Below the pieces are notes generated by a model, which was given only the letters and a program-made list of their open reading frames with translations, did not search any database and had not been told where the DNA came from. A program made the position numbers and the translations under genes. A stretch of DNA of 64,000 nt from Lama guanicoe (Eukaryota), in assembly GCA_013239625.1 (NCBI GenBank), contig MU053561.1, positions 374,826-438,825 of the forward strand, in the 5' to 3' direction. Shown here piece after piece: positions 2,885 through 64,000 of the stretch. Position 1 is the first letter of the stretch. Each line of letters starts with the position of its first letter.

Positions 2885-2989
2885 AAAAACTGGTTGGGGA
2901 TATTGGTGAAAATTTGTGGTAATATTTTTTTCTTTATGAATACAAAATTTTAGGATAAAACTTTAAGTTGAGCTAGTTGTAACTTGACT

Positions 2990-3427: not shown

Positions 3428-3462
<35 letters not shown>

Positions 3463-15095: not shown

Positions 15096-15575
15096 GTATG
15101 AAGTTGGCCTTACCTGTCCTCCATCCAGGGCATTCTCTAAGTTGTAAATCCATTTTTAGTGTTGAGGGGGTTTTAAAAAATCAAACATTATTCTGAATCC
15201 TGGCAATTCAAGCCATTTCATTCATCTCCTGCTTAACTCTGATGCTCTGACTCCTGTTCTCAGTTCTGTCTGGTTATTGTTGAAAAAAGTGATACTAACT
15301 GCTCCGTAAGGGACTGCTTCATTGGGGTGTGTAGGAGAGAACATTTGAAGCCCTCAGCGTACTCCTCCCTGTGCTCTTTCTGGTGACCAGGAGGATGGCA
15401 GTTCTCATGAGTCAGAAGTGTGATTTTCCCTGCCCAATCTAAGAGGTCCCACCACAGATGGAGGAGTGTAACCTGATGAACCGTGTGAAAGTGTCGACCG
15501 AGGTGGTTCTCTCTTGCTGGAAGGCGGTGGTCTGAGGATTGTCATGTTTTTCTCTCTCTCCCCTCTTTCCTCCAG

Positions 15576-15812
15576 GCCTGCTTTGTGAAGAGAACATTGA
15601 TGACTGTGCCAGGGGTCCCCACTGCCTCAACGGCGGTCAGTGTGTGGATCGGATCGGGGGCTACAGTTGTCGCTGCTTGCCTGGCTTTGCCGGAGAGCGG
15701 TGTGAGGGGGACATCAACGAGTGCCTGTCCAACCCCTGCAGCTCTGAGGGCAGCCTGGACTGCATACAGCTTACCAACGACTACCTGTGTGTCTGCCGCA
15801 GCGCCTTTACCG
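15576..15812 (+). CDS. NOTCH2: NOTCH2 exon ~23, EGF repeats
   Basis: [16 protein letters not shown]...[12 protein letters not shown] boundaries. Confidence 0.96.
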
Positions 15813-16067
15813 GTGAGCGTCTCCCAGCCTCCCCGCCACTGTGCTAGGGAGAGGGGTTTCGGTGATGGTGTTAGGCCCTGTACGATCCAGCTTAGTTCAA
15901 GGGCCCAGTTTTTTCTTAGGTCTGAGCTCCATGGATGTTGCAGACACTCTACCTTTTGCTTTTCCTGAGAGATGCTTTCTCTTTTGTTATATATTGATTG
16001 TGTCATGTTGTAGCAGAAATATAAAAAAAGAAATAGAATTTTGGGAGTAGTTGAGCAAAATAACTTT

Positions 16068-16210
16068 TTTTTTAATTGAGGTAAAATATACGCAGCATAA
16101 AATTGATCATCTTAACCATCGTTAAATGTACAGTTCAGTGGTATTAAGTCAATTCACCTTGCTTTGCTACGATCACCACCATCCATCTCTGGAACTCTTT
16201 TCATCTGAGC
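16068..16210 (-). mobile_element. Short LINE-1 3' terminal fragment
   Basis: Poly-T then aattgaggtaaaat...tacagttcagtggtattaag...accaccatccatctc. Confidence 0.7.
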
Positions 16211-18062
16211 AAAATCACTTCTTCTTTTCAGGAATCTCACATCTAACTCTAGTTTTACCACCAGGCCTCATCTGGCATGTAGTGGCTTGAGTTACTGGGT
16301 AGTCACTGCCACCGTGACTTTCTTTCCTCCTCTGGGATCCAGAGAGGCTTAAGAGCTTCTAGGACACTTAAGGAGAGTAGGTTCGAACTGGGATGTGTTT
16401 AACCAAAAACAGGTTATGAATGTATGAACAGGAAAGCTTCAGTGGCCACACGTATGACCTGCACAGCTGAGACTTGGCTGTGCTCCCAGTCTTTTCTCAA
16501 GGTTTTGTTTTTTTTTTCATCCCAGATCATAAAGATGACCAAGTTCTGCCTCAGAATAGGGACTGTATCATAGGCACCTACTGATTACTTGTGCAGAAGG
16601 CCAGTTTGGTGACTTTGAGGAACTAAAGTTGTTGTTTATATATATACTGAATGTGGCAGTATCATCAGATGCTCAGAAATCTGTCTTGCACCTCTGGGCC
16701 ATTCCAAATCTTATGCCGTGGAAGTATTCATTAGGGGTCAGATAAGAGTCTGCAGTCGTCTGCTTTGGCAAGTTGGACTCTGCTGTGTTCTGAACCTATG
16801 ATATCCAGACATCCTTCCTTCGGTTTTAAAGATATGTTGCCTTTTAAAACTTTGGAATTTTATTTAAAAATGGGGCAGATTTTGAGATTTGGGAGATGCC
16901 TAGGTGTGTAGTATCAAAAGAGAAACAGTCCAAAACCTGGACAGAAAGGGTATGAACAGTCTGTCTGCAGTCTCATATTTGTCACAGTGTGCTTCGGAAG
17001 CCAGAGAAGTGGTTCCTTTCATTGCCTCTGAGGCTCCCTTTATCTGGAAACAAACACAAACAAAGAAGGAAGCAGATGAAGGAAGGAATGGACCACACCT
17101 TGAATTGGAGTCCCACAGCCAGGAAGTGGTGTTTCTGCATTTTCCACTCTTGTGAATAAAAAATTCTTGACTCATTGATTGCAATTATTGTGGGATGCGA
17201 ATACTGAGATGACCACCAGTCCCTGAGCCCCGTGCCCACGTGATGGCTGCTCCTGGTTATTGTCTGCTGCAGTGATGTGAAGACACGAACATTTGTAACC
17301 CCTGCCTCCTAATTCTGGTTGGCCAGAATTATTGCTGTTTTTCCCTTTTAAGTGCCTGAAGGCCAGATGGGGCCTGAAGCCTGCTATTTGCCAAGAGGCC
17401 CCAGCATTGCCCTACGTCTCCCCCGTGATTTCATTTGCTTAGTTCAATTTGTCATGGAGCGAGCAGTGGGCTCAAGGTGCCTTCTGTTTTAGGGCTGTGC
17501 CTGGAGATCACTAACTCTGGGATTATTAAGCTGTGTTTTAAAGCAGTGCCAATCAGGTTACAGAAAGGCTAGAAAAGACTGGAAAGCAATGCGAAAGATG
17601 AAAATTCGCTACAAACCACAAATCACCATTTGGACGTATTGGCCTGGGGTGGCCTTTCCTATGAAGTAGATGATGTTAACAAAATGCAGTGAACACTTTT
17701 GCTAAATGTTTCTTTTGACTCATGACAGCTAAAGTGCCTTCAAAAAAATGTTCAGGTGTCATTTTCCTTTTTTTTTTTTTTTTTTTTGGACCATCTTGTT
17801 CTGTGAGTCGATCCGGGCATGGTGCCATTGTGCTTAGACAAGACAGACGAGGGAACTGGCCTGAGCCAGTGGTGGGCCAGGCGTGTTGAGAGCCAGTGAA
17901 TGTCTCCATCCTCTCATGTTCCCTTTGGCTTAGAACTGAATTCTCACGCCTCTTGCTCCTTCTCTAGTCCTCTGACTAGCTCACATCCTAGTAGTGTTCT
18001 GTTTACCAACTTGCAATTACCACTTCTCCCTTTTAAAACCCCCTTTTATTTTCTACCCTGAG

Positions 18063-18175
18063 GTCGTCATTGTGAAACTTTTGTCGACGTGTGTCCCCAG
18101 ATGCCTTGTCTGAATGGAGGGACTTGTGCTGTGGCCAGCAACATGCCTGATGGTTTCATTTGTCGTTGTCCTCCG
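18063..18175 (+). CDS. NOTCH2: NOTCH2 exon ~24, EGF repeat
   Basis: [40 protein letters not shown] acceptor, GTGAG donor. Confidence 0.94.
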
Positions 18176-19099
18176 GTGAGTGCCATGCTGCCTATTGAAG
18201 GAGCGCGCTCTCATCCGTCCCTAAAGCCTGTGACAAAGCTGAGAGAGTAAACCTGATGTTTCCGGGCTCTGCAGAGAACGTTCTTGGTGGGGACATTTCC
18301 TAAGTTTAGCCTCTGTAGAAGAAAGTGCTTCCATTTTCCATTTAGAACTAAGAAATTCCCAGAACCGGCGAGCTCCCTCAGCTATGAGTGTCAGTCTTCA
18401 GAAGCACCAAGGAGGATGGAATGTTCGCTTGAAAATGGGGCTAGTGTCTCTGGCTTCTGGGTCCTGTGCCGAAGGGTAGTCTTGCTGCCCAGTTTGGGGC
18501 AGAGTTGGTTGGAAATGCCACTTTGCTCACGTTCCTTGGCTGGGCCTATTTGGGAGCAGGCTGCTGCTTCAACTCGAAGGAAGCCTAACGTTAGCCATTT
18601 GCTGTGCAAACGCTTTGCCAGAGGCTAAAACTTCCCTAAAACCGATCACTACACATGGAGCGATACCAAAAGGAAACCTGTCCAGTAACCCTGGCCTGGA
18701 CTAAGCATTTAAGAACAAAATGACATGGGAAAGTCTCCTAGGCACCCAGTCCTCTGAAGTGAGTTTCTTCCCCCTGTAAGGTCATTATAAGAGTGATCTC
18801 ACGGCGGCTAGGAAAGGCACTCATATGTCACCTGACTCCGGTCCTGCATGAACTGTGGACTTCATTTCTAGAAGTGATCTCTTAGAGTGAGAAACTTCTG
18901 TCTGCCTCCTATGGGACTGCCAGCCCTGACCTCCGGTTAACTTGAAGAGGTCTCTCCCTAGAACCTAGTCCAGGAGGCTACACAGAGGGATCTCAGCCAG
19001 GTGTCTCATCTTTGCCTCCCGAGAGGGGGTTGGGAGGGAAAATGGGGCATGCCCTCAAGAGTCGGCCTGCCACCCTCATTTGTTCACTGATTTCCACAG

Positions 19100-19605
19100 G
19101 GATTCTCCGGGGCAAGATGCCAGAGCAGCTGTGGACAAGTGAAGTGTAGGAGAGGGGAGCAGTGTGTGCACACGGCCTCAGGACCCCGCTGCTTCTGCCC
19201 CAACCCCAAGGACTGCGAGTCGGGCTGTGCCAGTAGCCCCTGCCAGCATGGGGGTAGCTGCTACCCTCAGCGCCAGCCTCCTTATTACTCTTGCCAGTGT
19301 CCTCCACCATTCTGGGGCAGCCACTGTGAGCTCTACACGGCCCCCACCAGCACTCCTCCTGCCACCTGTCTGAGCCAGTATTGTGCTGACAAAGCTCGGG
19401 ATGGTGTCTGCGATGAGGTCTGCAACAGCCACGCCTGCCAGTGGGATGGGGGTGACTGTTCCCTCACCATGGAGAACCCCTGGGCCAACTGCTCCTCCCC
19501 ACTCCCCTGCTGGGATTACATCAACAACCAGTGTGATGAGCTGTGCAACACGGCCGAGTGCCTGTTTGACAACTTTGAATGCCAGGGGAATAGCAAGACA
19601 TGCAA
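19100..19605 (+). CDS. NOTCH2: NOTCH2 exon ~25, last EGF repeats and LNR-A/B
   Basis: [11 protein letters not shown]...[13 protein letters not shown]...[19 protein letters not shown] boundaries. Confidence 0.97.
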
Positions 19606-20929
19606 GTAAGAGTCCAGGGTCCCCAGGACTGAGGGACACTGTCACTAACACACCTCGGTTTCTTGTTCCTGCTCCTAACTGCTCCAGAGCTTCAGCCCCG
19701 GTTGCCTCTGCTTTCAGGCTGTCAGTCTTGTCCCACTGCACACTACCCTGTGCTCTCCCTTGCTGACAGAGGCACAGGAACGCTCACTGCACAACCACCC
19801 TCTCTCTGCCTCTCTCTTCTTCCTCGCCTGCTGCTCTCACAACCTCCTGGGGGAAATCACTTTTGGAAGTGGTGTTACCTGCTCTCAGGCAGCCTCTCAC
19901 GTTACTTGCCTGCAGGATGGACGGAAGGTCTGTACCTCTCTCTGTTTGCCCCATTTCTTTCCCTAAGACGGGGTTTCCCCATCTGGTTTTATCAGGAAGC
20001 GTAAACTAGATTAAGCAACTTAAACCTCCTGGTCTTCATTGTTGCAGTTACAGGGAGCTTTGTGGTTTACGTAATAACTTTCCATTTAGTCATCCCATTC
20101 AATGTAACTTCATTAATTCTCAACAACCTTGTGAGGCATAGGTAAAGTTAATGGCCTTTCACAGGCGAGGGAACTGAGAAATAGGAGGTTCAAGAACTTA
20201 CCAAAGTGCGTACAGCTACTCCCGGCTCCTGATCGCCTCTTTGAGCTAGAGTGGCAAGTTGTACTAGATGGTGTAACTATAAGGGAGGGGAGTGAGGGAG
20301 GAGAGGAAATTGAAAATGAAATGACTTTTGCATCAATAGGTTTTGGGATCCAATTTTCTTTTCCCAATCTTTGAAAGATGCTGTACCAGTTAGATCTGGT
20401 ATCCTGTGTGGGAGACACTGCTCCCCGCCTACCTTCTGTAGTTGGGATTCAATCTTGTTTGGAAAAGAAATGGGCCACATCAACATGGTTGTCTGTGTAG
20501 CATCTCTTGATGGTACAGGGCTACTGTCCAGTTTCCAGAAGCACCCTCTAGAGTCACATTTTACTCCTGAAAGCTCAAGGACAATGTATACAAAAATAGC
20601 AGAAGCATGAACCGGTTGATTTTTGTTTCAGATTTGCTTGCAAATCTGATTTAACACTATTATAAGCTGCCTGGGTGTCTGTAAGCATAGTGAGCCCAGT
20701 GCTTTTTCTCATTCGGGGGCACTCACTGATGCTAAAGGGCATAGACTATCTATAGTCTAAGAAGTCAGGACTAGGAGATTCACAGAAGCCTTCATTTGGG
20801 ATCTAATCTGAGCCATAGAAGATGGGTAGGAAAACCCACATTAGTTCCAAGCAGAAAAATCACATAGAGCTCCAGTCTGGCCTGAGCCCCTTACCTCGTT
20901 CTCTTCCTCCTCTGCCTCCCTCTGCCTAG

Positions 20930-21277
20930 ATACGACAAATACTGTGCAGACCACTTCAAAGACAACCACTGTGACCAGGGATGCAACAGTGAGGAGTGTG
21001 GCTGGGATGGGCTGGACTGTGCTGCTGACCGGCCAGAAATCCTGGCCGAGGGTACCCTGGTTATTGTGGTGCTGATGCCGCCGGAACAGCTGCTCCAGGA
21101 TGCTCGCAGCTTCTTGCGGGCACTGGGCACCCTGCTCCACACCAACCTGCGCATTAAACGGGACTCCCAGGGGGGCCTCATGGTCTACCCCTACTACGGC
21201 GAGAAGTCGGCTGCCATGAAGAAGCAGAGACTGACGCGCAGGTCCCTTCCTGGCGATCAAGAACGGGAAGTGGCTGG
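20930..21277 (+). CDS. NOTCH2: NOTCH2 exon ~26, LNR-C, HD-N and furin S1 region
   Basis: [30 protein letters not shown]...[16 protein letters not shown] boundaries. Confidence 0.97.
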
Positions 21278-22138
21278 GTAGGTTTTTAATTTCTTCACTC
21301 CTTGAAGCTTAATTTTATAAGGCTGAGCACTTTGACACACAGAAGTCATAACTGAACATGTAGAAGAAAGGTCAGAGGATGGAACAGCCAACCAACTCAC
21401 ACAAACCCATCATCCCAGTATTTACGTTTAATGCCAAAGGTGTGCCTTCATCCTGGGACCCTGAAAAGTGGGCTGGAGCAAGTGGGAGGCAGGGTGTCAG
21501 GACAGCCTCCTTGAGTGCTAGACTCTCTTAACCATTGGCCAGAGCTGCCTCACACCCTCTAGCAGTGACTCCTCTTTGTATTAATCCTGGCCTTCTTTTC
21601 AGGCCTTTCATTTATGTCTCTTTGACAAGGGTGATATTCTGCAATTGATCTGTCACTTGCATCCCACTGTTTGTTAGTATATCTCAGAGTTCACCTCTAC
21701 AGCTCACTGAGGTGTGGATGCAGACACAGAGGAGAGAGAGGAATAAAAAAAGGGGGCAGGGGTGCATTTTCAGAGTCGCTCTGTGTGCCGTTGAGTACAT
21801 GGCAAGGGGAAAAAGAAGCCCACCAAAGTGGGGAGAGCTCCGAAGACCAGCTTCACCCCATTGTCTCACTTAGTCTTGTGTTGCCTAAATCAGAATGCTT
21901 GGACTCAGCCAGACCAAGGAAGGTGACACATGCCCTAAGTGGGAATTAGTGTTCAGGGTCTAAGACAACATCTTAATTTCTGAGATCTGTCTGAAGGCAG
22001 CGTCCCAGGGGTGGACAGCCTGCAGCTGAGGGTGAGGAATAAGGCTCATGTAACCCTCTCTAACTCAGATTCCCGAACGGGCAGCCGTCTGTTTTCTCAC
22101 CGTTTCCCTTTGCCCTCTTTCCCCTCGGCAACCCACAG

Positions 22139-22281
22139 CTCTCAGGTATTTCTGGAAATTGACAACCGCCAGTGTGTTCAAGACTCAGACCAGTGCTTCA
22201 AGAACACGGATGCAGCAGCAGCTCTCCTGGCTTCGCACGCCATCCAGGGGACCCTGTCCTACCCTCTTGTGTCTGTTGTCA
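22139..22281 (+). CDS. NOTCH2: NOTCH2 exon ~27, HD-C
   Basis: [51 protein letters not shown] boundaries. Confidence 0.96.
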
Positions 22282-22479
22282 GTGAGTAGCCCTGGAATTA
22301 GGGATAAGTGTGGGGAGAAAGGGGTCACTCGGGGGCAGAGAGGAAAGGGCACATTTTCAATGTGCAGCTCTCTATTACTCAGGGCTGGTGAGGGCAAAGC
22401 TGCTCCCTAGAGGAATTCAGTGGTCGTACTGAGAGGCTGAAGTTTTATTCATCGCTTTCCCGTCCCTCTGCCCTTGCAG

Positions 22480-22690
22480 GTGAATCCCTGACCCCCAAAC
22501 GCACTCAGCTCCTCTACCTCCTTGCCGTTGCTGTTGTCATTATCCTCTTTATTATCCTGCTGGGGGTCATCATGGCAAAACGAAAGCGGAAACACGGCTC
22601 CCTCTGGCTGCCTGAAGGTTTCACCCTTCGCCGTGACTCCAGCAATCACAAACGCCGTGAGCCCGTGGGACAGGATGCCGTGGGACTGAA
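22480..22690 (+). CDS. NOTCH2: NOTCH2 exon ~28, transmembrane helix and RAM motif
   Basis: [39 protein letters not shown]...; AG/GT boundaries. Confidence 0.97.
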
Positions 22691-23068
22691 GTAAGAGAGT
22701 TTGCCAACAAGCTAGTAATCTCAGTAGCAGTAAGTACGGTTAAGGGGAAAAGCAGATCTTGCTGAACCATGAGTTTAAATTCTGAGCTCTGGCCGAGCCA
22801 CATTGTCACACTTGACCATGATCCTGAGTGCTACGATAGTCAAGAGTCTGGATGCTCCGCTTCTGTGTGTATCATCCCAGTGGTGCTCCGCTTCTGTGAC
22901 AAGGCATACTTGCATGTAAGCTCTTGATTAGTGGGGAAGGAAAGGATATTTACTCAGGTAATGGAATGTAGTATTACCCATTTTTCCTGAGCCAAGGCCC
23001 CTGACAGTCTGAGTACAGCCATAAGACTGTATGACGGTAAAAAAAAAATTATTGAAAAGTCTATTTTA

Positions 23069-23335
23069 AGACTCACAGACAGAGAATACAGACTTGTGGT
23101 TACCAGGGGGGTGGAGGGTGGGAAGGGATAGACTGGGATTTTAAAATTGTAGAATAGATAAACAAGATTACACTGTATAGCACAGGGAAATATACACAAA
23201 ATGTTATGATAACTCACAGAGAAAAAAATGTGACAATGAGTGTGTATATGTCCATGAATGACTGAAAAATTGTACTGAACACTGGAATTTGACGCAACAT
23301 TGTAAAATGATTATAAATCAATAAAAAATGTTAAA
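23069..23335 (+). mobile_element. Young 5'-truncated LINE-1 3' end
   Basis: L1 3'UTR text, AATAAA and A-rich tail; perfect 14-bp TSD aaaagtctatttta at 23055-23068 and 23336-23349. Confidence 0.9.
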
Positions 23336-23404
23336 AAAAGTCTATTTTAGATTATGATATAACCTCTGCTCTTGTTTTACACCTTCCTCATTCCCTCATA
23401 TCAG

Positions 23405-23501
23405 AAATCTCTCAGTGCAAGTCTCAGAGGCTAACCTAATCGGTTCTGGAACAAGTGAACATTGGGTCGATGATGAAGGGCCCCAGCCCAAGAAAGCCAA
23501 G
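23405..23501 (+). CDS. NOTCH2: NOTCH2 exon ~29, RAM region/NLS
   Basis: [36 protein letters not shown] boundaries. Confidence 0.95.
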
Positions 23502-24049
23502 GTAAGCTGGCTGTGTCAGACTTTATCTGCTCACATTTCTTATTTCTGCCCTTTGGTATCTAGAGTGTCATGAATGGGAGAAAAGGGTGATAGTCTTTAC
23601 ACGCTGACCATCAGTGGCTATCCTAGGTTGTCTTCAGGTTATGGGTGGCTTTGGGTTACCTAAGTAAGTTTTTCAAAAAGAGCTCTTTAAAAATAATAGA
23701 AGAAACATGCTTCCTTCCTCAAGGGTCTTGCTGATGGTACTTGACTTAGGACTGCTGTGTGCAAATAGCAGTTTCCTTCATGGCTAGGTCTCTCTTTTAT
23801 CCTCTCTGGGCACTTCTCTTTCTGGAAGGGAAGGTGGAATTAAACAGTGGAAGAAAGCCAGTGACCATTGAGTTTGGAGGCTTCTCATCTTGAGCCCTGG
23901 ACACTAAAGCCACAGAGAAGTAAGAGGTAGAGTGAGCAGTGTCTGACATGGCAAAGAAGGCCATTCACCCACAGCGACACGTGACTGGGACACGCGTGTA
24001 TCCCGTGGATAATCTAAATCAGCTTGAGGAAACGAAAGCTGGAGGAATA

Positions 24050-24300
24050 CAGGCACGTAGTGCCTTATGATGGTTAAGAACATTGCCTCAGTTACAGTCA
24101 GAACTGTATTCGAGTCCAAAACTCTGCCACTTTGTAGCTGGCATGTTACTTAACCTCTTGGTAGTTAAATTATTTTTATCTGTAAGATAGGGATAATAAC
24201 AATAATTCTTTCTTCTGTGAGTTGTGAGGATTAAATACAGCAATTCGTGTTAATTGCCTTACGCATTTTCTATCACATACTAAGTATTCAGTAAAGGGCA
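24050..24300 (+). mobile_element. MIR SINE remnant
   Basis: tggttaaga...ctctgccactt..gttacttaacctct...tctgtaagatagggataata...tgtgaggattaaat. Confidence 0.75.
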
Positions 24301-24941
24301 GCTGCTTTTAAAATTGTAATAATAATAATTGTTCAACAAATATTTCCCGAGAGCTTGCTCTCAGGCTTGAATACAGGGTACAAGGAGGCAACCTTGGACA
24401 GGGTTTGTCCCTGTTCTGAGGAATCTTGCAGGTAGCAGTAGAGACTACCATGTCGTGCCATGTAAGTTCTTAACACGTGGTCGGTTAAGTAGAGTGAGCA
24501 GTGTGCTCTTTGGGACCCGCAAGAGGAATTAAAGTCTACTTTCTATTTGAAGGATAGCTAGGAAGTTAGTCAGACAAAGAACTGGGAGGGGCCGTGGCAG
24601 GCGGAGGGAACAACGTAGTCAGAAGCCCAGAAGCAGAAAAACGGTCCTGCGGGGAGTCTGTAGACGGCACGTTAGATAGGTAATACAGGTGACATATTAA
24701 GGCTGTCTGCTGCCTAGAGGATGGGATGGGGAGGCTGGGAGAGTTGTACAGATGATGCAGGAGAGATAAACAGGAACCACGTACCCCGAGCAGTGTGGAT
24801 AATAATCTGGAGAGTTAGATAGGAGGAGAGAGAAAACTGGCGGGAGGTTAGGAGAAGCGGTGTGAGAGTCTGGACTAGCTCCTTGGCTGCACTTCCCAGG
24901 GGTGGGCCAGGTTGACGGGGAGACTCGTCCCCCCCTTTCAG

Positions 24942-25110
24942 GCTGAAGATGAGGCTTTACTCTCAGAAGAAGATGACCCCATCGACCGACGTCCATGGAC
25001 ACAGCAGCACCTTGAGGCCGCAGATATCCGCAGGACTCCATCGCTGGCTCTCACTCCTCCACAGGCAGAGCAGGAGGTGGACGTGCTGGATGTGAACGTC
25101 CGTGGCCCAG
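24942..25110 (+). CDS. NOTCH2: NOTCH2 exon ~30
   Basis: [30 protein letters not shown]...DVNVRGP; AG/GT boundaries. Confidence 0.96.
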
Positions 25111-25727
25111 GTCAGCACCTGCAAGCCTTCCCTTTTTCACGCACCATGCCTCCCTGCCCTTAGTTCCGCCTTGTTGTCCCTGTGTTTTCCCCTCTTGGTG
25201 ATCTGCTCCCTTCTGATGTCATAGACTCAAAATCAGCTTGAGGAAATGAATGCTTAAGGAGCACAGGCTTGCAGAAATTATGAATTCATATGAGAATAAA
25301 GGGAAGTATTTCACATTGCTTCCCGTACAGCATGCTCGACCACAGACAGGCTCATTGTATGGGATAGGTTTTAGTGGGATGGAAAAATAACATCCCAAAG
25401 CAGAGGTATAGAGAATTAGTTTAGTTTATATCTTAGCGCATATAGTTTATTAATAGCGTATATTTTAAAATATCCAATAGGACTCAGAAACTTTAACAGA
25501 AAAGCTTATTTAACTTAGAGAATAGCTCCTCTTTACAGAAAGGACATTATCAAGGAAAAGTCAGTGGCAAATGGAAAGCTAATTGCCAATTACCACAAGA
25601 AGCACAGTTTATTTTTTTCCCCAAAAGAATAATTTTACTCAAATTGAACTATTCCAACAATAGAATTAATTGAACATTAATGTCCTTCTCCTCCTTAAAT
25701 GCCTTTTGGAATTTTCCTTTCTTCTAG

Positions 25728-26029
25728 ATGGGTGCACCCCACTGATGCTGGCTTCTCTCCGAGGAGGCAGCTCAGATATGAGTGATGAAGATGAAGATGC
25801 AGAAGACTCCTCTGCCAACATCATCACAGACTTGGTCTACCAGGGTGCCAGCCTCCAAGCCCAGACAGACCGGACTGGTGAGATGGCCCTGCACCTTGCA
25901 GCCCGCTACTCGAGGGCTGATGCTGCCAAGCGTCTCCTGGATGCAGGTGCAGATGCCAACGCCCAGGACAACATGGGCCGCTGCCCTCTCCATGCGGCAG
26001 TGGCAGCTGATGCCCAAGGTGTCTTCCAG
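25728..26029 (+). CDS. NOTCH2: NOTCH2 exon ~31, ankyrin repeats
   Basis: [13 protein letters not shown]...[21 protein letters not shown]...DAQGVFQ; AG/GT boundaries. Confidence 0.97.
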
Positions 26030-26846
26030 GTAAAGAACGTGAGAAGAGTTGGTTCCTTACAGATCAATAATATTTTACCTTTTTAAAAGCACTTAAGATC
26101 CCATTACATTTGTTCAGTAATTCTTTGAGACAATAAGGCAGATGATAGAGTCATGCTTGATGGACGGGAAAGCAGGAAAAGGGAGGCAGGCAACCAGACC
26201 TGACTATATACAGCCAGATGGTCGCAGAGCCAACAGCAGATAACACTAGTCTTCTGATCGTTAATCACCATTGTGTTTTGTTTTGCTTTGTTTTGGGTGT
26301 GGCAAAATACCTCCGAGATGAACAGATCAGATAGGAGTGATTTCTGTTATGAAGCCTTTGACTACTGTCAGCTTCTCCCTCTAGCCTTGTCTGACCATGT
26401 GGGATTCCAGCTGCTCGGTGGTGGTTTTCTTGACACGAGTTCACAGTTTACTCCTGATACCTTATTATTTTACTTTTATGAGGAAATTGGAAACATTCTG
26501 TGTCATCTTAAACTGTATACCATAAGTGAGGTTGTGGTATTTCCCCACATCCGTCTTCTTTGCTTTAGAAAGTAGAAGTACATTAGTTTACATAGCCATT
26601 GTCTCGAGCACTTACTTGTTTGCACGTTAACTCATTCCCTTTATTCCTTCCTTCCTCCATTCATTCAACAAGTATTTATTGATTGACCAGGGTAGAATCT
26701 TGGGCACAAAGATAGCAAGACATCCTCTGCCTTCCAGAAATTTACAGTGTAGCCTTAGCTCTGAAGCTCTTATTTCTTATCTTAGCACCATTATTACTAT
26801 TTTTAAATCCAGGTGTCTCTCTTTTCTGTACTTTCTCTTATTCTAG

Positions 26847-26994
26847 ATACTGATCCGCAACCGAGTAACTGATCTCGATGCCAGGATGAATGATGGCACT
26901 ACACCCCTGATCCTGGCTGCCCGCCTGGCTGTGGAGGGAATGGTGGCAGAGCTGATCAACTGCCAAGCAGATGTGAACGCAGTGGATGACCATG
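26847..26994 (+). CDS. NOTCH2: NOTCH2 exon ~32, ankyrin repeats
   Basis: [53 protein letters not shown] boundaries. Confidence 0.97.
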
Positions 26995-27660
26995 GTAGGA
27001 ATGAGAAGCAGGGATTCAGATTCCTACTGCAAAGCAAGCCTCTAGGGAGGGAGAATGGTTACCAGATCCTTAAAGAACGGTCTCATATCTGAATCCACTG
27101 AAGATTCCTTCACTCATTCGTTCTTCTTTTTCCCATGTTGAGTTCAGAGAACTGAGCCAGTGGGAGGTCCATATAGATGAAGCTGGGAAGGGATTTTTAG
27201 TGAGAGTTGTTGGATCTCAAAGCAAGTCCATGTAAGGTCTGCTTGTGTGGGTTCCCAAGCATCCCATTCTTGACATGAATATATGAGAGCTGACTTCATC
27301 ATGGAGGGCGGGGCTGTGAGATATTCTAAGTAGACATTCCGGCTTGTAATAAATAGGTAGGTTATTGTCTTCAGTGTGGGACAGGGTAGATTCTGTTGTA
27401 TGAAGGATGTGGCACCATAGATGATCCTTTTACCTAGAAGTTTTCTGAAGGCTAGACAGCCTGTACTGAAGTATTTCTATAACAGGGGGAAATGAAGATA
27501 ATACTTGGGTTTTTCCTGTGGGCCCCCAAAGAGAACTGGCTTCCTGCTGCTGCCTGAGAAGTTCAAGGTTTCCTTGTGCAGGTCATGATGCTTCCTTATA
27601 GGAAGGAGTAAGACAGGTCCTTCCACTGTGTCTGCTTATAAAAATGTTTTTTTCCTTCAG

Positions 27661-27758
27661 GAAAATCTGCTCTTCACTGGGCAGCCGCTGTGAATAATGT
27701 GGAAGCCACCCTTTTGCTGTTGAAAAATGGGGCCAACCGAGACATGCAGGACAACAAG
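27661..27758 (+). CDS. NOTCH2: NOTCH2 exon ~33, ankyrin repeat
   Basis: [36 protein letters not shown] boundaries. Confidence 0.97.
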
Positions 27759-27989
27759 GTACAGTCTGGGCTCTGAGCTGGAGGGCAGGCAGAGCAGTGC
27801 CTCAGATGATAAGGCCTTCCCTTTCCTCCCTTAGCTCCTCTTGTGATAAAGATAGAAAAGATGGAAGCAGGTTGGACAGGAACTTGGTCCAGCGAGCTTG
27901 AGGGCTCATATTGGGCTTCTCCAGGGGAGAGTCAGGGTTGAGCCCCCTGCCTCCTCAGTCTGCACCAGGCTGTCCTGTCAACAAGTCTG

Positions 27990-28330
27990 GTGCAGCCTTC
28001 TCTCCTCTCTCTCCTTTGATATTTCCCTTTCTCCTGCCTTCGTTCTCTTCACACTCATTTCCTTTTCCCTGGTTCGTTTTCATTTGTTTTCCTGCTGCCT
28101 TTTTGTTTGTTTGTTTCCTGTTCTTAGACACCACGATGTTCTCCTGTTTGCTTTTCTCCCTCTGGCTTTTATGTCATGCTTCCCCTCTCTTACTCATCTC
28201 TTTCTCTCTCATTCATTTCCTCCTTCCCCTTATTTTAGTTCTTTCTCTCGCATGTCTTGCATCTTTTTTCTTTTCCTTGCCCTTGTTTTTCCCATTTCTG
28301 CACATCCTGTAGGTTCTTTCTCATCTCTAA
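27990..28330. repeat. Long pyrimidine-rich (CT) low-complexity tract in the last NOTCH2 intron
   Basis: About 340 bp strongly dominated by C/T on the + strand. Confidence 0.8.
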
Positions 28331-28678
28331 CTGGTGTTCCTCTGAGAACCCTATTTTGATAAGCTCAGTGCTGTTTCAAGTCAGTCTCTGGCTCGGGGAC
28401 ATGCTTTATGTCACACATTCCCCCACAAAAGAGATATAGCCCTCAGTGGGTCGAAATTGGTTCTTGGGGATGAGCAGAATAATCTTGCTCTCTTTATGTA
28501 CAGAGCACTGATATCCATTCAGCATGCAGGTAGATATACATTTAATCTGTAGTATTAACATTTCATGTGGGGAGACACTAGGAAAAACATGTCTAAAGGG
28601 GTGATAGTAACAAAGATTGAGAAACACTGCTTTATTTTCAAGAGTTATTAAAATGTGCTCTGTGGGCCTTTTCTGTAG

Positions 28679-30067
28679 GAAGAGACGCCTCTGTTTCTTG
28701 CTGCCCGGGAAGGGAGCTATGAAGCAGCCAAGATCCTATTGGACCATTTTGCCAATCGGGACATCACAGACCACATGGACCGTCTTCCCCGGGACGTGGC
28801 TCGGGACCGCATGCACCATGACATCGTGCGCCTCCTGGATGAGTACAATGTGACACCGAGCCCTCCAGGCACTGTGCTGACCTCTGCTCTCTCACCTGTC
28901 ATCTGTGGGCCCAACAGATCTTTTCTCAGTCTGAAGCACACCCCAGTGGGCAAGAAGTCTAGACGGCCCAATGCCAAGAGTGCCGTGCCTACTAGCCTCC
29001 CTAACCTTGCCAAGGAGGCCAAGGATACCAAGGGAAGTAGGAGGAAGAAGTCTCTGAGTGACAAGGGCCAGCTGTCTGAGAGCTCAGTGACTCTGTCCCC
29101 CGTTGATTCCCTAGAATCTCCTCACACATATGTTTCTGATACCACGTCCTCTCCAATGATTACATCCCCCGGAATCTTACAGGCCTCACCCAACCCTATG
29201 TTGGCCCCCGCTGCCCCCGCTGCCCCAGTCCATGCACAGCATGCACTGTCTTTCTCTAACCTTCCTGAGATGCAGCCATTGGCTCATGGGGCCAGCACTG
29301 TGCTTCCCTCAGTGAGCCAGCTGCTGTCCCACCACCACGTTGCTCCCCCAGGCGGCAGCAGTGCGGGGAGCTTGGGTAGGCTGCATTCAGTCCCTGTCCC
29401 AGCAGACTGGATGAACCGCGTGGAGATGAATGAGACCCAGTACAACGAGATGTTTAGTATGGTCCTGGCTCCAGCGGAGGGCGCCCACTCTGGCATAACT
29501 CCCCAGAGCAGGCCACCTGAAGGGAAGCATTTAACCACCCCTCGGGAGTCCTTGCCCCCCATTGTGACTTTCCAGCTAATCCCCAAAGGCAGCATGGCCC
29601 AACCAGCTGGGGCTGCCCAGGCTCCATCCAACTGCCCTCCAGCTGTTGCAGGCACCCTGCCCACCATGTATCAGATTCCAGAAATGGCTCGTTTGCCCGG
29701 TATGGCTTTTTCCACTGCCATGATGCCTCAGCAGGATGGCCAGGTTGCTCAGACCATTCTCCCAGCCTATCACCCCTTTCCAGCCTCTGTGGGCAAGTAT
29801 CCCACACCCCCGTCACAGCATAGCTATGCGTCCTCCAACGCTGCTGAGAGAACGCCCAGCCACAGTGGTCACCTCCAGGGTGAGCATCCCTACCTGACAC
29901 CATCCCCAGAGTCTCCTGACCAGTGGTCAAGTTCATCACCCCACTCTGCTTCTGACTGGTCAGATGTGACCACCAGCCCTACTCCTGGGGGTGCCGGAGG
30001 AGGTCAGCGGGGACCTGGGACACACATGTCGGAGCCACCACGCAGCAACATGCAGGTTTACGCGTGA
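28679..30067 (+). CDS. NOTCH2: NOTCH2 last coding exon (~34): final ankyrin, NLS, TAD, PEST, stop
   Basis: [18 protein letters not shown]...[27 protein letters not shown]...NMQVYA*; C-terminus typical of NOTCH2. Confidence 0.98.
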
Positions 30068-44449: not shown

Positions 44450-44859
44450 GCGTTTCTCCACTTTGCTCACCAGTTCATCCGTTGACCACGGGCGCTGCCC
44501 TGGGAGGCTGGGGAGGCAGAGCCTCCTCTGATTTTCTCACACTCATGCTCCTCCTTCCTTCCACTGTAAGCCAGCCCACCAGGAAACTGGGGATGGCTGG
44601 ATGACGTGGGCTCAGAGTGCTATTAAGCATCCGAGTCAACCGATGCAAACATCATGTGTGCCCGAGGGCCGCTAGAAAGAGAGTAAAAGGCACACGATAC
44701 ACTGAGCTTTTTATTTTTTTTTAAACAAGTTCTCTTTTGTTCCTCCCCTTCTTTATTCCGTCTGTTTTGCTCACGCCACTCTCTGCCCTTCTCCTTCCCT
44801 CCTGCAAAGAGCCTCGTTCTGCAAAGAGCTTTTCATTCTCTTCTCGCTCCTTCCCTGGA

Positions 44860-45330
44860 TCCTTCCACGTGCGCCTAACGGCCCCTCTCGGAAGAACTAC
44901 ATGCGTTGGACACGGGGGCGCGCACCTGTCGTTCGCCTGTTGTGAAAATCGGCTGCGCTGAGCCGGACCCAGCTCAGGCCAAGGCGGGCGCCCCCACACC
45001 CCGCGCTCGGGGAGCCCGGCGTCCCTGCAAGTCCGACCCGCAAGGCCACCGTTGCAGGGGCTGACTCGCCAGCGAACAGGCGATGCCATGAGGTCAGGGA
45101 GGCCCTTCCTCTCCCACGGCCGTTCGCTCCCGGTGCTGCTCCTGGCGCTGCTGCTGGCTGACTGTGTTGGCAAGGATCCAGTTTTCCACCCGGAGTGGGG
45201 CTTTGATTCCTATGAAGTCACCATCCCCAAGAAGCTGAGCTTCCGACGAGAGCAGCAGGGTGTGGCCAAGCACGTGTCCTACCTCCTGCAGGTAAAAGGC
45301 AAGAACCGCGTCCTCCACCTGTGGCCCAAG
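44860..45330 (+). promoter_or_regulatory. CpG-rich promoter/5' region of ADAM30 copy 1
   Basis: Dense CpG and high GC around the ATG compared with CpG-depleted flanks. Confidence 0.75.
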
Positions 45331-47241
45331 AGGTTTCTGTTAGCCCGAACTCTGCAGGTTTTCTCCTTCACGGAGCAGGGGCAGCTCTGGGAGGATCACC
45401 CTTATGTACCCAGCGACTGCAACTACATGGGCTTGGTTGAAGGAAATCAGGATTCCGAGGCTACTTTAAGCACATGCACGGGGGCGCTCCGAGGCATATT
45501 GCAAATCGATGCCAGGCATTATCAAATCGAGCCCCTCAGGGCTTCTTCCACGTTTGAACATGTGGTGTATCTCCTGAAGAAAGAGCAGGAATTTCCTAGT
45601 CACATCTGTGGCTTAAGTCATGACGACACAGTAAAGCAGATGGCCCAGCAGGAGAACGTGGCTAGGATAAGCGACCTCACTGAGTCTTACATGCACCAGA
45701 AGTACTTGGAATTAGCCCTGGTCTTCGATCACAGTAGGTATTTGTACCTGAACTCCAATCTTACTCTAGTCGTGAATGACGCCATTCTTCTGACTGCGAT
45801 CGCAGACTCTTACTTTCAAGATGTCCGTATGAGAATACATCTATTTGGTGTGGAAGTATGGACAGATGAAAACAAAATAAAAGTGACTTTTTCAAAGTTA
45901 GACCAAGTTTTAGGCCAATTTATGGTATACAGAACAAGTGTACTAAATGCTCGATTTCCGGTAGATTGGGTACATCTATACATTAAACAAACTTACACAG
46001 ATTTTCTTGCACAATCCTGGGGAACTGTGTGTAGTACGTTTTATGCTGGATCTGCAAGTGTTTTTCTAGATATGAATGTCCTCACACCTGCCACTTGGAC
46101 TGCTCATGTATTGGGCCATAGTGTGGGAATGAACCATGATGCAGAATATTGCCAGTGTAAGGGTAGGCACAATTGCATCATGGGCACTGGACGAACTGGG
46201 TTTAGTAATTGTAGTTATGCTGAGTTTTTTGCACACGTCTATTCAGGAGCAAAGTGTCTAACTAATATCCCAGGACTAGGCTTTGTGGTTAAGAGATGTG
46301 GGAACAAAATTGTGGAAGAGGATGAGGAATGTGACTGCGGTTCAGGAGAGGACTGTAAAACAGACCAGTGTTGTCAACCAGATTGTAAATTCAAACAAGG
46401 TGCCAATTGTAGCACTGGACTTTGCTGTCATAACTGTCACTTTCGTCCATCTGGGTACATGTGTCGGAAGGAGGAAAATGAATGTGACCTCGCAGAGTAC
46501 TGCAGTGGGACCTCAGGACTCTGCCCAAGTGACACTTACAAGCAGGATGGAACCCCTTGCAAGTACGAAGCCCGTTGTGTCAAAAAGGGCTGCCAGGCCA
46601 GATATATGCAGTGCCAAAGCATTTTTGGACCTGATGCCAGGGAGGCTCCTCTTCAGTGCTATGATGTCCTTAATGTAATAGGTGACCAGTATGGGAACTG
46701 TGGTGCTTCAGGAGTCCGTGAATATCGGAAGTGTACCAGGAAAAATATATTATGTGGCAGGATACAGTGTATAAATGTCAACACCATCCCTGATATGCCA
46801 GATCATACTCTTCTAATTTCCACTCATCTGCAGGAGGAAAACCTCATGTGCTGGGGCATAGGCTACCATTTGTCCATGGTAGCTATGGGGATACCTGACC
46901 TGGGAGTGGTAAATGATGGGACCTCCTGTGGTACGGACAAGATATGTTTTAATAGAAATTGCGTGAATAGCTCAGTCCTGAAGTTTGACTGTTTGCCTGA
47001 CAAGTGCAACCACCGAGGCGTTTGCAACAATAAGAAAAACTGCCACTGCATGTATGGCTGGGCCCCTCCCTTCTGTGAGGAGGTAGGGTATGGAGGAAGC
47101 ATTGACAGTGGGCCACCGGGACCTCTAAAACAGGGGGTGCCCACCTCAATTCAGGTCGTGTCCCTTTCGTTAGTACGCCTTATTTTGTTAATTATCTCAG
47201 TGATTGTTGTGTTTTTCAGGAAAATCTTAGGAAACGTATAA
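45088..47241 (+). CDS. ADAM30: ADAM30-like protein, copy 1 (intronless, 717 aa): signal peptide, prodomain, metalloprotease-like domain with HVxxH, disintegrin, Cys-rich, EGF, TM; cytoplasmic tail truncated
   Basis: Single ORF with full ADAM architecture (CGNKIVEEDEECDCG, ECDLAEYC, GYGGSIDSGP); position directly 3' of NOTCH2 on the same strand matches known ADAM30 synteny. Confidence 0.93.
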   Translation: MRSGRPFLSHGRSLPVLLLALLLADCVGKDPVFHPEWGFDSYEVTIPKKLSFRREQQGVAKHVSYLLQVKGKNRVLHLWPKRFLLARTLQVFSFTEQGQLWEDHPYVPSDCNYMGLVEGNQDSEATLSTCTGALRGILQIDARHYQIEPLRASSTFEHVVYLLKKEQEFPSHICGLSHDDTVKQMAQQENVARISDLTESYMHQKYLELALVFDHSRYLYLNSNLTLVVNDAILLTAIADSYFQDVRMRIHLFGVEVWTDENKIKVTFSKLDQVLGQFMVYRTSVLNARFPVDWVHLYIKQTYTDFLAQSWGTVCSTFYAGSASVFLDMNVLTPATWTAHVLGHSVGMNHDAEYCQCKGRHNCIMGTGRTGFSNCSYAEFFAHVYSGAKCLTNIPGLGFVVKRCGNKIVEEDEECDCGSGEDCKTDQCCQPDCKFKQGANCSTGLCCHNCHFRPSGYMCRKEENECDLAEYCSGTSGLCPSDTYKQDGTPCKYEARCVKKGCQARYMQCQSIFGPDAREAPLQCYDVLNVIGDQYGNCGASGVREYRKCTRKNILCGRIQCINVNTIPDMPDHTLLISTHLQEENLMCWGIGYHLSMVAMGIPDLGVVNDGTSCGTDKICFNRNCVNSSVLKFDCLPDKCNHRGVCNNKKNCHCMYGWAPPFCEEVGYGGSIDSGPPGPLKQGVPTSIQVVSLSLVRLILLIISVIVVFFRKILGNV

Positions 47242-47447
47242 ACCCAAAGAGAAAGAAACACCACGAATTAACACTGGAGTAGAATAATTCAAGGCAAAAA
47301 ATGTCAAGAAACCAAAAAATAATCAGGCAATGCACAGTCACTCTGTAACCCAGGGTCATAAACTGAATGAGGTTCTCATTTATCCTAACAGCTCTTCCTT
47401 CTTCCCTCAATTCTTTAATTGAATTTTCTTTGAGGTTTTGATCAGCA

Positions 47448-47453
47448 AATAAA
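47448..47453 (+). terminator. Polyadenylation signal of ADAM30 copy 1
   Basis: AATAAA ~200 nt after the stop with downstream GU/U-rich sequence. Confidence 0.7.
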
Positions 47454-48469
47454 AAGTATTCTTGGTTTGGAAACAAATTGTTGCATTTTTGTTTCCTACT
47501 TCACTTGCCCCCTAGTTTGTGATCAAGTTCTGGATATCCTTAAAAAAAAAATGCCCCGATGGCTTTCTGAACCCTAAAGTTGTGAGTGTCACAGAAGTAC
47601 AGTGGATTTCAGAGAAGAGTCCTGCCTGTCAGTTCCCAGCAAACAAAGCCATAGTCTGCCTTTGCCTCTGCCTCCCTCAGCATCATCAGTGAAGTCACCT
47701 GTGCCATTGCCCCATGCTGAGCCATAAATGGTGACTACCACATTTTACATTCAGAAAGCGGTAGTTGACAAGGGTGTCCCCAGTTAAGGACATCCCCCTG
47801 TTATAGTCACTGCATGTTTCACTGTAGCTCCGTATACGTGTGGTCTCTGACTCAGTGTTTGGGGTGACCTCAGTTGGGTTAAGGACTCTAGTCTACCATA
47901 ACTTGTGCACTACACCACAGTCTACCATTGATGACAAGACCTGGCAGTGTCCTGGGGTCCAGGCTCTTAACAGAATACCATGCTTTGGGTTTCTGCTTGC
48001 TAAAACAATCTTCTATGAACATGTGCTGGGGGACATCTGGCCCTTGGTTTGCCACACCCCTAACTAAAGCAGAGGAGAGTGAGGAACGCCTTTCTTCCCA
48101 GGTACACCCATGTCTGCCCCCAAATATTCTCCCCTCTTTGCCCGGTGCTTTGGCTGGGAGGAGAGGAGGACTGAGTGCCCCCTTCAGAGGAGCATGTGCC
48201 CACGTCTTTACCAATGAGGGTCTCATCATCCCAGACTTGTGTCAGCCCCCAGCGTTTTCAGGTTTATTCTGGCCTGAGCCCTCCTGCAGTTCCCTAGCCT
48301 TCCCCAGGGCTGCTCCTTCCGCAGGCAGCACTGCAGGACCACTGTACCCCACCGCACTCTCCACTTTTCTTAGCCACACAGTCTTCTAACTGAAGAGGTG
48401 GTGGGAGGCTCATGATAAAGAGTGGTGCCCTTAGACTGTTCGGGGACAGTTCTTACTATAGATGCAATA

Positions 48470-52220: not shown

Positions 52221-52222
52221 AA

Positions 52223-62098: not shown

Positions 62099-63469
62099 AC
62101 AGACACCTTAAAATTTCCACCTCCTGGGAAGAACTTCTCATATTTCTTCCCTTCACGAGAGTCAACTTCTTTTGCTATTTTCTCCTTCCCCGTGTGACTG
62201 GACCATGATACAGAAGCCAAAAACGTGAATATTCTTTTTGATTCTTACTTCTCTCCTGCTGGAAGAATCCATTCAATCGTTAAGTCCAGCAGAGTCTGCT
62301 TTATTCATATTTTTTGAAGATGTCCACTTGTGTCCTTCCCCAGAGGGTAACAGAGGTGACTGGTAAGGAGGCTCCAGGAGGGAAGTGCCTAAATGTGTGT
62401 GGCAATGGTGTCACCTAGCATCACCATCGAGTGCAAATACAGTTTCAGTCTCCTTGTGTGTGAACTATGGAAGATAATCATAGAGTTACCATCCTCTGCA
62501 AAATAGGGTTCTTGCGAAGACTTAATGGGCTGATTCACGCAGAGAGCCTGGAAGAGTGGCTGGCACACAGTAAGCCTTCCATAAACACTGAATTTTATGA
62601 GCTCCAATGCCATTATTTCTGGCCCACTGACAACATCGCTTGACTGGATTGTTACATGAAGTTAACTGGTCTCCCTGATTCAGGCCTGGTCCTTTTTAAA
62701 CCTTTCCCTGTAATGCAGACGTAATTAATTCCCTAAGAACATAATTGAAAATGTTCCTTTTGAGTCAAAAGTTCTCAACAAAATCATAAGACCCTGTAAT
62801 TTATGGATTCCACAGACAACTAGTTCTTTTATATTCTGAGCAGGGATCTTGGATGGAGCTTTGCAGTCTCCTCTCTCAGCCATCACTCATACTAGAAACA
62901 TATATAAACTCTTCACCTTGCTCTGAAAGCTCCTGGGTTTTGCTCTTTTCACGGATATTTTACTCTTTCTAGATTCTTCCACCACTGCACACCCACACCA
63001 GAAAATCACGCTGATCCCTGGCAACCCAAGGACACAGAGCAGAAAGAACCACCTGACCAAATGAAACTTTCCCTTGCCTGAAGCCAGGCGCTGCCCGGGG
63101 GGCGGGTGGGGATATGAGTCTGCACTGATTTTCAGTTCCGGCGCTACCCATGCCGGCTCCTGTGCGCCTTCCCTTTGCTGCAAGCACCGCAGCTGAAAAC
63201 GGAATGGTGGAATGGAAAGGTGGGCACAGTGGCCTATGAATCACCTGATTCAATCAATGAAAAACCATCAGGTGTGCCCGAGGGCCTCTAGAAACAGACT
63301 AAAGGGCACAAAATACAGCGAGTTTTTTTTTTTTAAACAAGTTCTCTTTTGTTCCTCCCCTTCTTTATTCCGTCTGTTTTGCTCACGCCACTCTCTGCCC
63401 TTCTCCTTCCCTCCTGCAAAGAGCCTCGTTCTGCAAAGAGCTTTTCATTCTCTTCTCGCTCCTTCCCTG

Positions 63470-63940
63470 GATCCTTCCACGTGCGCCTAACGGCCCCTCT
63501 CGGAAGAACTACATGCGTTGGACACGGGGGCGCGCACCTGTCGTTCGCCTGTTGTGAAAATCGGCTGCGCTGAGCCGGACCCAGCTCAGGCCAAGGCGGG
63601 CGCCCCCACACCCCGCGCTCGGGGAGCCCGGCGTCCCTGCAAGTCCGACCCGCAAGGCCACCGTTGCAGGGGCTGACTCGCCAGCGAACAGGCGATGCCA
63701 TGAGGTCAGGGAGGCCCTTCCTCTCCCACGGCCGTTCGCTCCCGGTGCTGCTCCTGGCGCTGCTGCTGGCTGACTGTGTTGGCAAGGATCCAGTTTTCCA
63801 CCCGGAGTGGGGCTTTGATTCCTATGAAGTCACCATCCCCAAGAAGCTGAGCTTCCGACGAGAGCAGCAGGGTGTGGCCAAGCACGTGTCCTACCTCCTG
63901 CAGGTAAAAGGCAAGAACCGCGTCCTCCACCTGTGGCCCA
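63470..63940 (+). promoter_or_regulatory. CpG-rich promoter/5' region of ADAM30 copy 2
   Basis: Identical to the copy-1 CpG-rich region. Confidence 0.75.
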
Positions 63941-64000
63941 AGAGGTTTCTGTTAGCCCGAACTCTGCAGGTTTTCTCCTTCACGGAGCAGGGGCAGCTCT
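63700..64000 (+). CDS. ADAM30: ADAM30-like protein, copy 2 (5' part only; runs off the window)
   Basis: MRSGRPFLSHGRSLPVLLLALLLADCVGKDPVFHPEWGFDSYEVTIPKK..., identical to 45088-45388. Confidence 0.9.
   Translation, partial: MRSGRPFLSHGRSLPVLLLALLLADCVGKDPVFHPEWGFDSYEVTIPKKLSFRREQQGVAKHVSYLLQVKGKNRVLHLWPKRFLLARTLQVFSFTEQGQL

Follow-up and report, generated by a model that had tools for sequence, protein, structure and literature searches.

An ADAM30 gene of the guanaco with valine in place of the catalytic glutamate, its Glu-bearing tandem twin, and the mosaic of identical and divergent tracts between them

What becomes of an ADAM metalloprotease gene whose zinc motif has lost the catalytic glutamate and nothing else? 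The question is raised by a stretch of 64,000 nucleotides from the guanaco, Lama guanicoe (assembly GCA_013239625.1, contig MU053561.1, positions 374,826 to 438,825 of the forward strand), referred to below as the window and numbered from its first letter, in which the gene ADAM30 copy 1 ("type 1") encodes Val at the position of that residue. In metzincins, the Glu that follows the first His of the zinc motif is the general base and polarises the zinc-bound water. From the letters alone, an earlier note on this DNA had proposed that copy 1 keeps its zinc site and is proteolytically inactive, and this proposal is supported by sequence and a structural model as a reading of what the protein would do. 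Copy 1 is probably the Notch-proximal member of an old gene pair and would act as a zinc-binding, partner-binding, non-cleaving pseudoprotease in male germ cells. The main interest lies in this pair of Glu and Val genes, apparently homogenised by gene conversion save for three blocks, rather than in the single Val.

Copy 1 is located on the + strand at 45088..47241 as an intact, intronless single exon of 717 codons plus stop, running from ATG to stop. Its Pfam matches, all of which exceed the curated cut-offs, are Pep_M12B_propep (residues 47-118), Reprolysin (205-395, E 2e-37), Disintegrin (410-482) and ADAM_CR (487-596), and a hydrophobic C-terminal segment is visible in the translation. This succession of propeptide, reprolysin-type domain, disintegrin domain, cysteine-rich domain and membrane anchor is that of the ADAM family (M12B). 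The protein search scored 8000 candidates and gave the best 120 of 141 matches; of the first 98 matches listed beyond the query (P0003-P0099 and P0117 aside), nearly every one carries the name ADAM30 or ADAM30-like, with 75-79% identity at the top. Among the matches listed, the named artiodactyl ADAM30 and "ADAM30-like" proteins share 79% (warthog), 77% (humpback), 76% (hippo) and 75% (cattle) identity with copy 1, and the primate ADAM30 proteins 66-67%. With nearest relatives named ADAM30 and a single-exon gene, copy 1 is assigned as an ADAM30 ortholog.

The zinc motif HVLGHSVGMNHD (residues 340-351; 46105..46140, + strand), with Val for Glu, is confirmed by direct reading and translation of CAT GTA TTG GGC CAT AGT GTG GGA ATG AAC CAT GAT, and it is not a chance match because it stands inside a 717-residue open frame with ADAM domains. 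The catalytic position is codon 341 (46108..46110, + strand), GTA in copy 1 and GAA in its twin, copy 2; the adjacent codon 342 has a synonymous difference (TTG vs CTG). The three His and the CIMG Met-turn, which the earlier note had described as retained, are indeed present: H340, H344, H350, D351, both Gly and M365 of the Met-turn (residues 363-366; 46174..46185, + strand; read in the translation and in the alignment) are kept, and the general-base Glu alone is changed. Copy 1 thus has the His triad and Met-turn of a catalytically competent metzincin, with Val341 where the general base should stand. Upstream, Cys174 in HICGLSHDD (45607..45609, + strand), which we take to be the propeptide cysteine switch, is identical in both copies, codons 1-251 being without differences. 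Copy 1 is most likely non-cleaving because the general-base Glu is lost, as in the pseudopeptidases ADAM7 and ADAM29.

The rest of the catalytic domain bears no mark of this loss in its Reprolysin Pfam score, which is 129.5 bits for copy 1, 121.1 for copy 2, 118.6 for marmoset and 125.7 for warthog. An AlphaFold2 model of residues 200-400 of copy 1 has a mean pLDDT of 93.9 and a pTM of 0.90; its input was a 77-row alignment with rows chosen among motif-matching sequences, and conservation was judged on a 58-row alignment instead. Foldseek places the model at TM 0.84-0.91 and rmsd 1.5-2.4 Å from adamalysin II, other snake-venom domains, ADAM33, ADAM8 and ADAM22, so that the predicted structure of the catalytic domain is an adamalysin fold, with the active-site helix at residues 332-345. 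Judged by sequence and model, the scaffold of copy 1 is intact.

The name "copy 1" used in the earlier note implied a second ADAM30 gene, which exists. Aligned to the window, the copy-1 protein gives two matches, one at 45088-47238 and one at 63700-63999 (the latter with residues 1-100, 100% identical). The second match belongs to a duplicated unit at 63220..64000 (+ strand) whose open reading frame, from 63700, runs off the window; in the genome (locus L002), copy 2 is complete, is located 18.6 kb downstream of copy 1 and encodes 717 residues, 91% identical to copy 1, with the motif HELGHSVGMNHD (HELGH) and GAA at codon 341. The copy-1 unit (44606..47940, + strand) is alignable with 63220-66538 and comprises the gene with ~480 bp upstream and ~700 bp downstream only. 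The copies are 100% identical between ~44800 and 45840, a tract that takes in some 290 bp ahead of the ATG; this shared proximal flank suggests common regulation of the two genes.

Across the two open reading frames, 120 of 2154 bases and 67 residues differ, and these differences are strongly clumped. None falls in codons 1-251, 343-493 or 555-683 (1593 coding bases). They are confined to three blocks on the + strand: block 1, codons 252-342 (45841..46113; 42 differing codons, dS 0.41, dN/dS 0.73); block 2, codons 494-554 (46567..46749; 29 differing codons, dS 0.27); and block 3, codons 684-717 (47137..47238; 10 differing codons, dS 0.13), which covers the transmembrane segment and the 7-residue tail. 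Base identity within the blocks is 68-92%, dN/dS between the copies ranges from 0.73 to 0.91, and the same block boundaries are found in Camelus proteins. Codons 341 and 342 are the last two differences of block 1, 40 bases past the previous one, and are followed directly by a tract of 455 identical bases. Both copies have their 44 Cys and their four N-glycosylation sequons in the same positions. The combination of zero differences in 1593 coding bases with neighbouring blocks at dS up to 0.4 is typical of old paralogs that undergo gene conversion. Block 1 has no third copy in the assembly.

Set against the model, block 1 comprises the end of strand 248-257, the helix 271-289, the strands 294-299, 308-311 and 321-325, and the first half of the active-site helix. 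It presumably forms the upper half of the catalytic domain, which lines the substrate cleft from above in metzincin structures. By numbering against catrocollastatin (PMC4885070, in its available text), block 2 corresponds to the end of the wrist and the N-terminal (V-loop) half of the cysteine-rich hand. Identification of block 2 with the hypervariable region (HVR) was considered and rejected by the same numbering: NECD 464-467 in copy 1 corresponds to 466-469 in catrocollastatin, where the HVR is given as 561-582 (PMC4885070), so that the HVR would lie in one of the tracts without differences.

A first rival explanation is that the Val is a sequencing or assembly error, base 46109 truly being A and copy 1 an ordinary HELGH protease. 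Codon 341 adjoins the 455-nt tract identical in both copies, where short reads are unassignable, and repeat trouble in this assembly is visible elsewhere, as discussed below. However, both V (copy 1) and E (copy 2) are present in this assembly, and the adjacent synonymous difference at codon 342 makes a single miscall unlikely. Another assembly has the exact copy-1 protein (P0001) on a 77.9-Mb contig. Fourteen DNA runs, under five organism labels, contain 0.93 or more of the 31-mers sampled from 45800-46200; one of these runs may be the source. The Val also recurs in another genus: the Camelus bactrianus "ADAM30-like" protein XP_010967043.2 (P0127) reads HVLGH on the same block, is identical to copy 1 at 100% in block 1, 97% in block 2 and 100% in block 3, and differs from it at 13 of 717 residues overall, whereas the copy-2-type records of Camelus (P0123, P0125 and P0126) read HELGH. 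An error at this base is therefore very unlikely, barely credible in view of these records.

The earlier note had set GTA one substitution away from GAA, and copy 2 does carry GAA; the idea of a recent one-base slip private to copy 1 falls, because the Val is common to C. bactrianus and the Glu-less state is frequent in ungulate and bat ADAM30. Fifty-nine residues, 341 included, are paralog-specific in the same way in both genera, whereas 11 residues (8 with P0124 taken as copy 2) are common to the paralogs within a genus and differ between genera, all of them outside the blocks. Because residues shared within a genus all lie outside the blocks and paralog-specific residues are stable across genera, the pattern is, on these sequences, one of concerted evolution around stable paralog-specific blocks. 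The available text of PMC13751797 puts the separation of the two genera at more than 11 My.

A second rival explanation considers copy 1 as a functionless duplicate in decay, its frame being repaired by conversion from copy 2. Several observations weigh against the proposed pseudoprotease and must be set beside it. About three quarters of the copy-1 open reading frame is identical to copy 2, and the dN/dS of 0.73-0.91 in the unconverted blocks fits relaxed constraint on one or both copies equally as well as functional divergence. The protein cluster of copy 1 holds records of Camelus ferus, C. bactrianus and C. dromedarius, but intact copy-1-type proteins are on record only for Lama guanicoe and C. 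bactrianus: no intact C. ferus or C. dromedarius copy-1 record occurs in the cluster, and in the dromedary the sole copy-1-type gene model, P0059 with 487 aa, leaves out the catalytic domain. In C. bactrianus, the superseded record XP_010967055.1 (P0128) has HVLGH on a copy-2-type block 1, that is, Val on the background of the other paralog, which means that the phasing of codon 341 was wrong or variable at least once and gives the error explanation one of its supports. Moreover, copy 2 of this assembly carries the residues of copy 1 at 385, 616, 618 and 655, where copy 2 of the other assembly (P0124) is Camelus-like. Because P0124 differs from the present copy 2 at these 4 residues, some of the 100% identity may reflect very recent conversion or assembly collapse. 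An unplaced contig of 1129 bp (C52589), which repeats residues 1-251 and stops precisely at the boundary of the first tract, points likewise to collapse or repeat trouble.

These points have to be balanced with what tells against decay. The blocks are beyond the reach of conversion repair and yet remain open, with block 1 100% and block 2 97% identical between genera; all Cys and zinc ligands are retained; and the Pfam score of the catalytic domain is no lower than that of copy 2 or marmoset. The nearest non-camelid kin, warthog and cattle, are Glu-less as well and full-length, the clusters of the cattle forms counting 101 and 83 members. Decay of copy 1 is thus disfavoured, with a small chance of being correct, and a retained, non-cleaving protein is the preferred reading.

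Two further observations concern the camelid records. The copy-2 gene P0123 carries copy-1 residues at 253-255 (with Glu at 261 as in Camelus records). The GenBank models of the dromedary are shortened, and block 2 of P0059 is half of copy-1 and half of copy-2 type.

The loss of Glu is not peculiar to copy 1, and in ADAM30 it is less unusual than the earlier note would suggest. The 58-row ADAM30 alignment was hand-picked from the listed matches and the camelid cluster, without fragments, ADAM20/21/9/1a-like outgroups and many of the primate, rodent and marsupial rows that nearly duplicate others. Glu is present in 36 of its rows and absent from the other 22. The replacing residue is Asn in 10 bats; Val in five rows (two camelid copy-1 rows, two cattle forms and one mole); Ala in three (warthog, humpback and star-nosed mole); Ser in hippo; Cys in horse; Asp in armadillo; and Leu in a mole. 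The three His and the Met-turn are kept in 22/22 Glu-less rows vs 34/36 Glu rows. Glu is found in the sampled primates, rodents, rabbit, carnivores, marsupials and platypus, and primate ADAM30 sequences read HELGH, in line with the form that the earlier note gives for the human protein. Among the artiodactyl ADAM30 in the matches listed, camelid copy 2 alone has Glu, further copies elsewhere being possible. At least five changes between Glu and non-Glu are required on the tree of blocks 1 and 2. ADAM30 has, on this alignment and tree, lost its Glu repeatedly or anciently in Laurasiatherian mammals.

The bats deserve a separate mention, as they possess two ADAM30 lineages (P0010-P0033). One has Asn in 10/10 rows, in both suborders, and the other keeps Glu in Glossophaga, Sturnira, Myotis brandtii and Eptesicus. 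One Eptesicus copy is also devoid of two zinc-binding His.

The strict conservation of zinc ligands, Met-turn and fold long after the loss of Glu, in 22/22 rows, could be taken to mean that the metal site is still used and that the Val form cleaves through another residue or mechanism, as a protease with altered chemistry. Nevertheless, every characterised metzincin uses Glu as its general base, and the residue found in its place in ADAM30 varies with the lineage (V, A, S, C, N, L or D), which does not resemble a new catalytic residue. ADAMs that lack only the Glu are classed as inactive in the available text of PMC11266112. Cleavage by altered chemistry is accordingly given little credence, and a zinc-binding domain that does not cleave remains the favoured interpretation.

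How old is the pair? Blocks 1 and 2 supplied 150 columns, with column 341 omitted, for a maximum-likelihood tree. The tree places camelid copy 1 with warthog (A) and one cattle form, that of banteng (P0007, V), with support 99/95, and camelid copy 2 with the other cattle form (P0008), humpback and hippo, with support 93/91. Block 1 of copy 2 is otherwise nearest to primate and rodent ADAM30, with 56-61% identity. In approximately unbiased (AU) tests, whose groups were chosen with the tree already known, the two cattle forms as sister rows are rejected (p 0.0005), whereas a grouping of the five camelid rows together is not (p 0.17), nor is one of the five non-camelid cetartiodactyl rows (p 0.23). 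Because the camelid copies as one clade are not rejected, a pre-artiodactyl age of the pair is not secure. A duplication before the artiodactyl radiation is nevertheless the best-supported reading of these sequences, although not proven, because dS reaches ~0.4 in block 1. With such an early duplication, the Notch-proximal "type 1" gene would have been Glu-less since before the split of camelids, pigs and ruminants, which likewise is not proven. A run of 22 residues in block 1 (QVLGQFMVYRTSVLNARFPVDW) is identical in camelid copy 1 and warthog, and this identity argues for constraint on the Glu-less domain.

The proposed function can be described as follows. Copy 1 would be made as a complete membrane ADAM, from signal peptide to transmembrane helix, with a tail of 7 residues. 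Zinc would be held by H340, H344 and H350, and the zinc-bound water would not be activated by Val341, which has no carboxylate, so that no cleavage would follow. The protein would instead bind a substrate or a partner and act in male germ cells, while its twin, which keeps Glu, is the candidate active enzyme. Gene conversion would preserve the identity of the two genes and of some 290 bp upstream of them, and three blocks would have been paralog-specific since before the split of Old World and New World camelids, one of them ending at codon 341.

The part of this proposal that concerns germ cells draws on leads from RNA runs and from related species. In four RNA runs (one of them only guessed to be RNA), some labelled as reproductive system, the share of sampled words present is 0.52-0.64 for a stretch that is ~80% copy-1-specific, at most about a fifth of it being common to copy 2. 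The gene being intronless, these matches could be DNA carry-over, which tells against their use as a sign of expression. According to the available text of the respective papers, pig ADAM30 rises steeply in mature testis (PMC11354776) and human ADAM30 is testis-specific (PMC11641350).

A more speculative extension can be formulated, in which camelids keep a live (Glu) and a dead (Val) ADAM30 as a pair and selection separates three modules, the dead copy working with or against the live one in the same germ cells as partner, decoy or substrate trap. It is a doubtful idea with a small chance of being right. If true, the live and the dead copy would be told apart by three modules, namely the half of the catalytic domain at the substrate cleft, the V-loop region of the cysteine-rich hand, and the membrane-spanning helix, the rest being homogenised together with the proximal upstream flank. 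Cattle, whales and hippo would then have both lineages Glu-less, and ADAM30 would offer a series from protease to pseudoprotease within a single gene.

The surroundings of the pair are informative as to its location. The 3' part of a Notch receptor gene occupies 1..30067 (+ strand), directly upstream of copy 1 and on the same strand. Positions 1-28800 contain, on the + strand, 98 stop-to-stop frames with 55 codons or more, and the EGF, LNR, NOD, NODP and Ank exons of this gene are among them. The last coding exon, with its open reading frame at 28775-30067, is Ser/Pro/Ala-rich and has no Pfam match. The gene is presumably NOTCH2, and its open reading frame gives a weak match to "NOTC2" (0.84) in a protein atlas. 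In human, NOTCH2 and the testis-expressed ADAM30 adjoin, as stated in the available text of PMC11641350. A Pfam scan of the open reading frames 47931-48386 and 15545-16006 gave no match.

Other repeats occur around the two genes. A segment of 889 bp, 91% identical and in opposite orientation, stands just upstream of each ADAM30 copy (43200-44060 vs 61212-62099) and may be either a repeat element common to both sites or part of the old duplication that became inverted. A direct repeat of 1.9 kb (35307-37176 vs 52222-54091, 92.5% identity) has an offset of 16.9 kb vs 18.6 kb for the gene pair and is probably an interspersed repeat. Contigs C7321, C55228, C6178 and C7688 of the same genome bear further clusters of ADAM genes with a single exon and 36-42% identity to ADAM30; their members stand from a few kb to ~55 kb apart, in both orientations, with open frames of 739-908 aa.

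The view of ADAM30 as a catalytically competent ADAM comes from human and mouse. In many ungulates, bats and moles, the annotated ADAM30 proteins lack the catalytic Glu only and keep the zinc site, and the label "ADAM30" should therefore not be understood as "active protease" in Glu-less species. Short-read assemblies can, in addition, mis-phase codon 341. The camelid pair of a Glu-less and a Glu-bearing gene offers a natural comparison for the role in sperm of a dead ADAM domain with an intact zinc site, as well as a compact example of conversion sparing what may be function-specific blocks. The understanding of the metzincin mechanism is left unchanged by a Glu-less ADAM30. The sequences themselves are already public and annotated "ADAM30" or "ADAM30-like". 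Literature searches returned no paper reporting a Glu-less or duplicated ADAM30, and the main texts of PMC6191284 and PMC9114714 have no ADAM30 passage; a study of Mus (PMC3849967) reports, in its available part, only purifying selection on the adhesion domain of Adam30.

Among known systems, those closest in presumed behaviour are ADAM7 (HQLGH) and ADAM29 (HHLGH), listed in Table 2 of the review PMC11266112 as pseudopeptidases with roles in sperm maturation; the available text of that review does not mention ADAM30. The likeness to non-catalytic sperm ADAMs drawn in the earlier note is thereby borne out, the same pattern being seen in both: as in copy 1 (HVLGH), the three His, Gly, Asp and Met-turn are kept and Glu alone is replaced, within a multidomain membrane architecture and with a tie to male reproduction. 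With Glu lost, His triad and Met-turn kept and a gene long intact, copy 1 is placed with the pseudopeptidases, which are a class by way of working and not a clade. By its sequence, it joins the known class of ADAM pseudoproteases with Glu-only loss. Unlike copy 1, ADAM7 and ADAM29 belong to other ADAM subfamilies and lack Glu in all mammals described, whereas in ADAM30 the Glu is kept in sampled primates, rodents, carnivores and marsupials, and in camelids a Glu-bearing twin stands next door.

ADAM22 is another non-catalytic ADAM and, by sequence, the nearest solved structure over the whole ectodomain (E 4e-59). It is the receptor of LGI1 and works by binding. Unlike copy 1, which keeps its zinc ligands, ADAM22 has also lost them (QSLAH, PMC11266112 Table 2).

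Within the ADAM30 family, the human and mouse proteins, which are testis-expressed and have an HELGH motif, share with copy 1 the single exon, the domain order and a position downstream of a Notch gene (PMC11641350, available text). In contrast, human ADAM30 has the HEXXHXXGXXHD motif, and its effect in cells required the catalytic site, according to the part of PMC4972530 that is available. The camelid protein also differs in length: copy 1 stops 7 residues past the membrane segment (47209-47241), at 717 aa with almost no cytoplasmic tail, and the other ungulate forms count 713-727 aa, the tail being essentially absent, vs 791-800 aa in monkeys; the camelid gene is, moreover, duplicated. The ADAM30 proteins of cattle, warthog, whale, hippo, horse and bats resemble copy 1 in being Glu-less with His and Met intact, and the motifs of these Glu-less relatives read HVLGH, HALGH, HSLGH, HCLGH and HNLGH.

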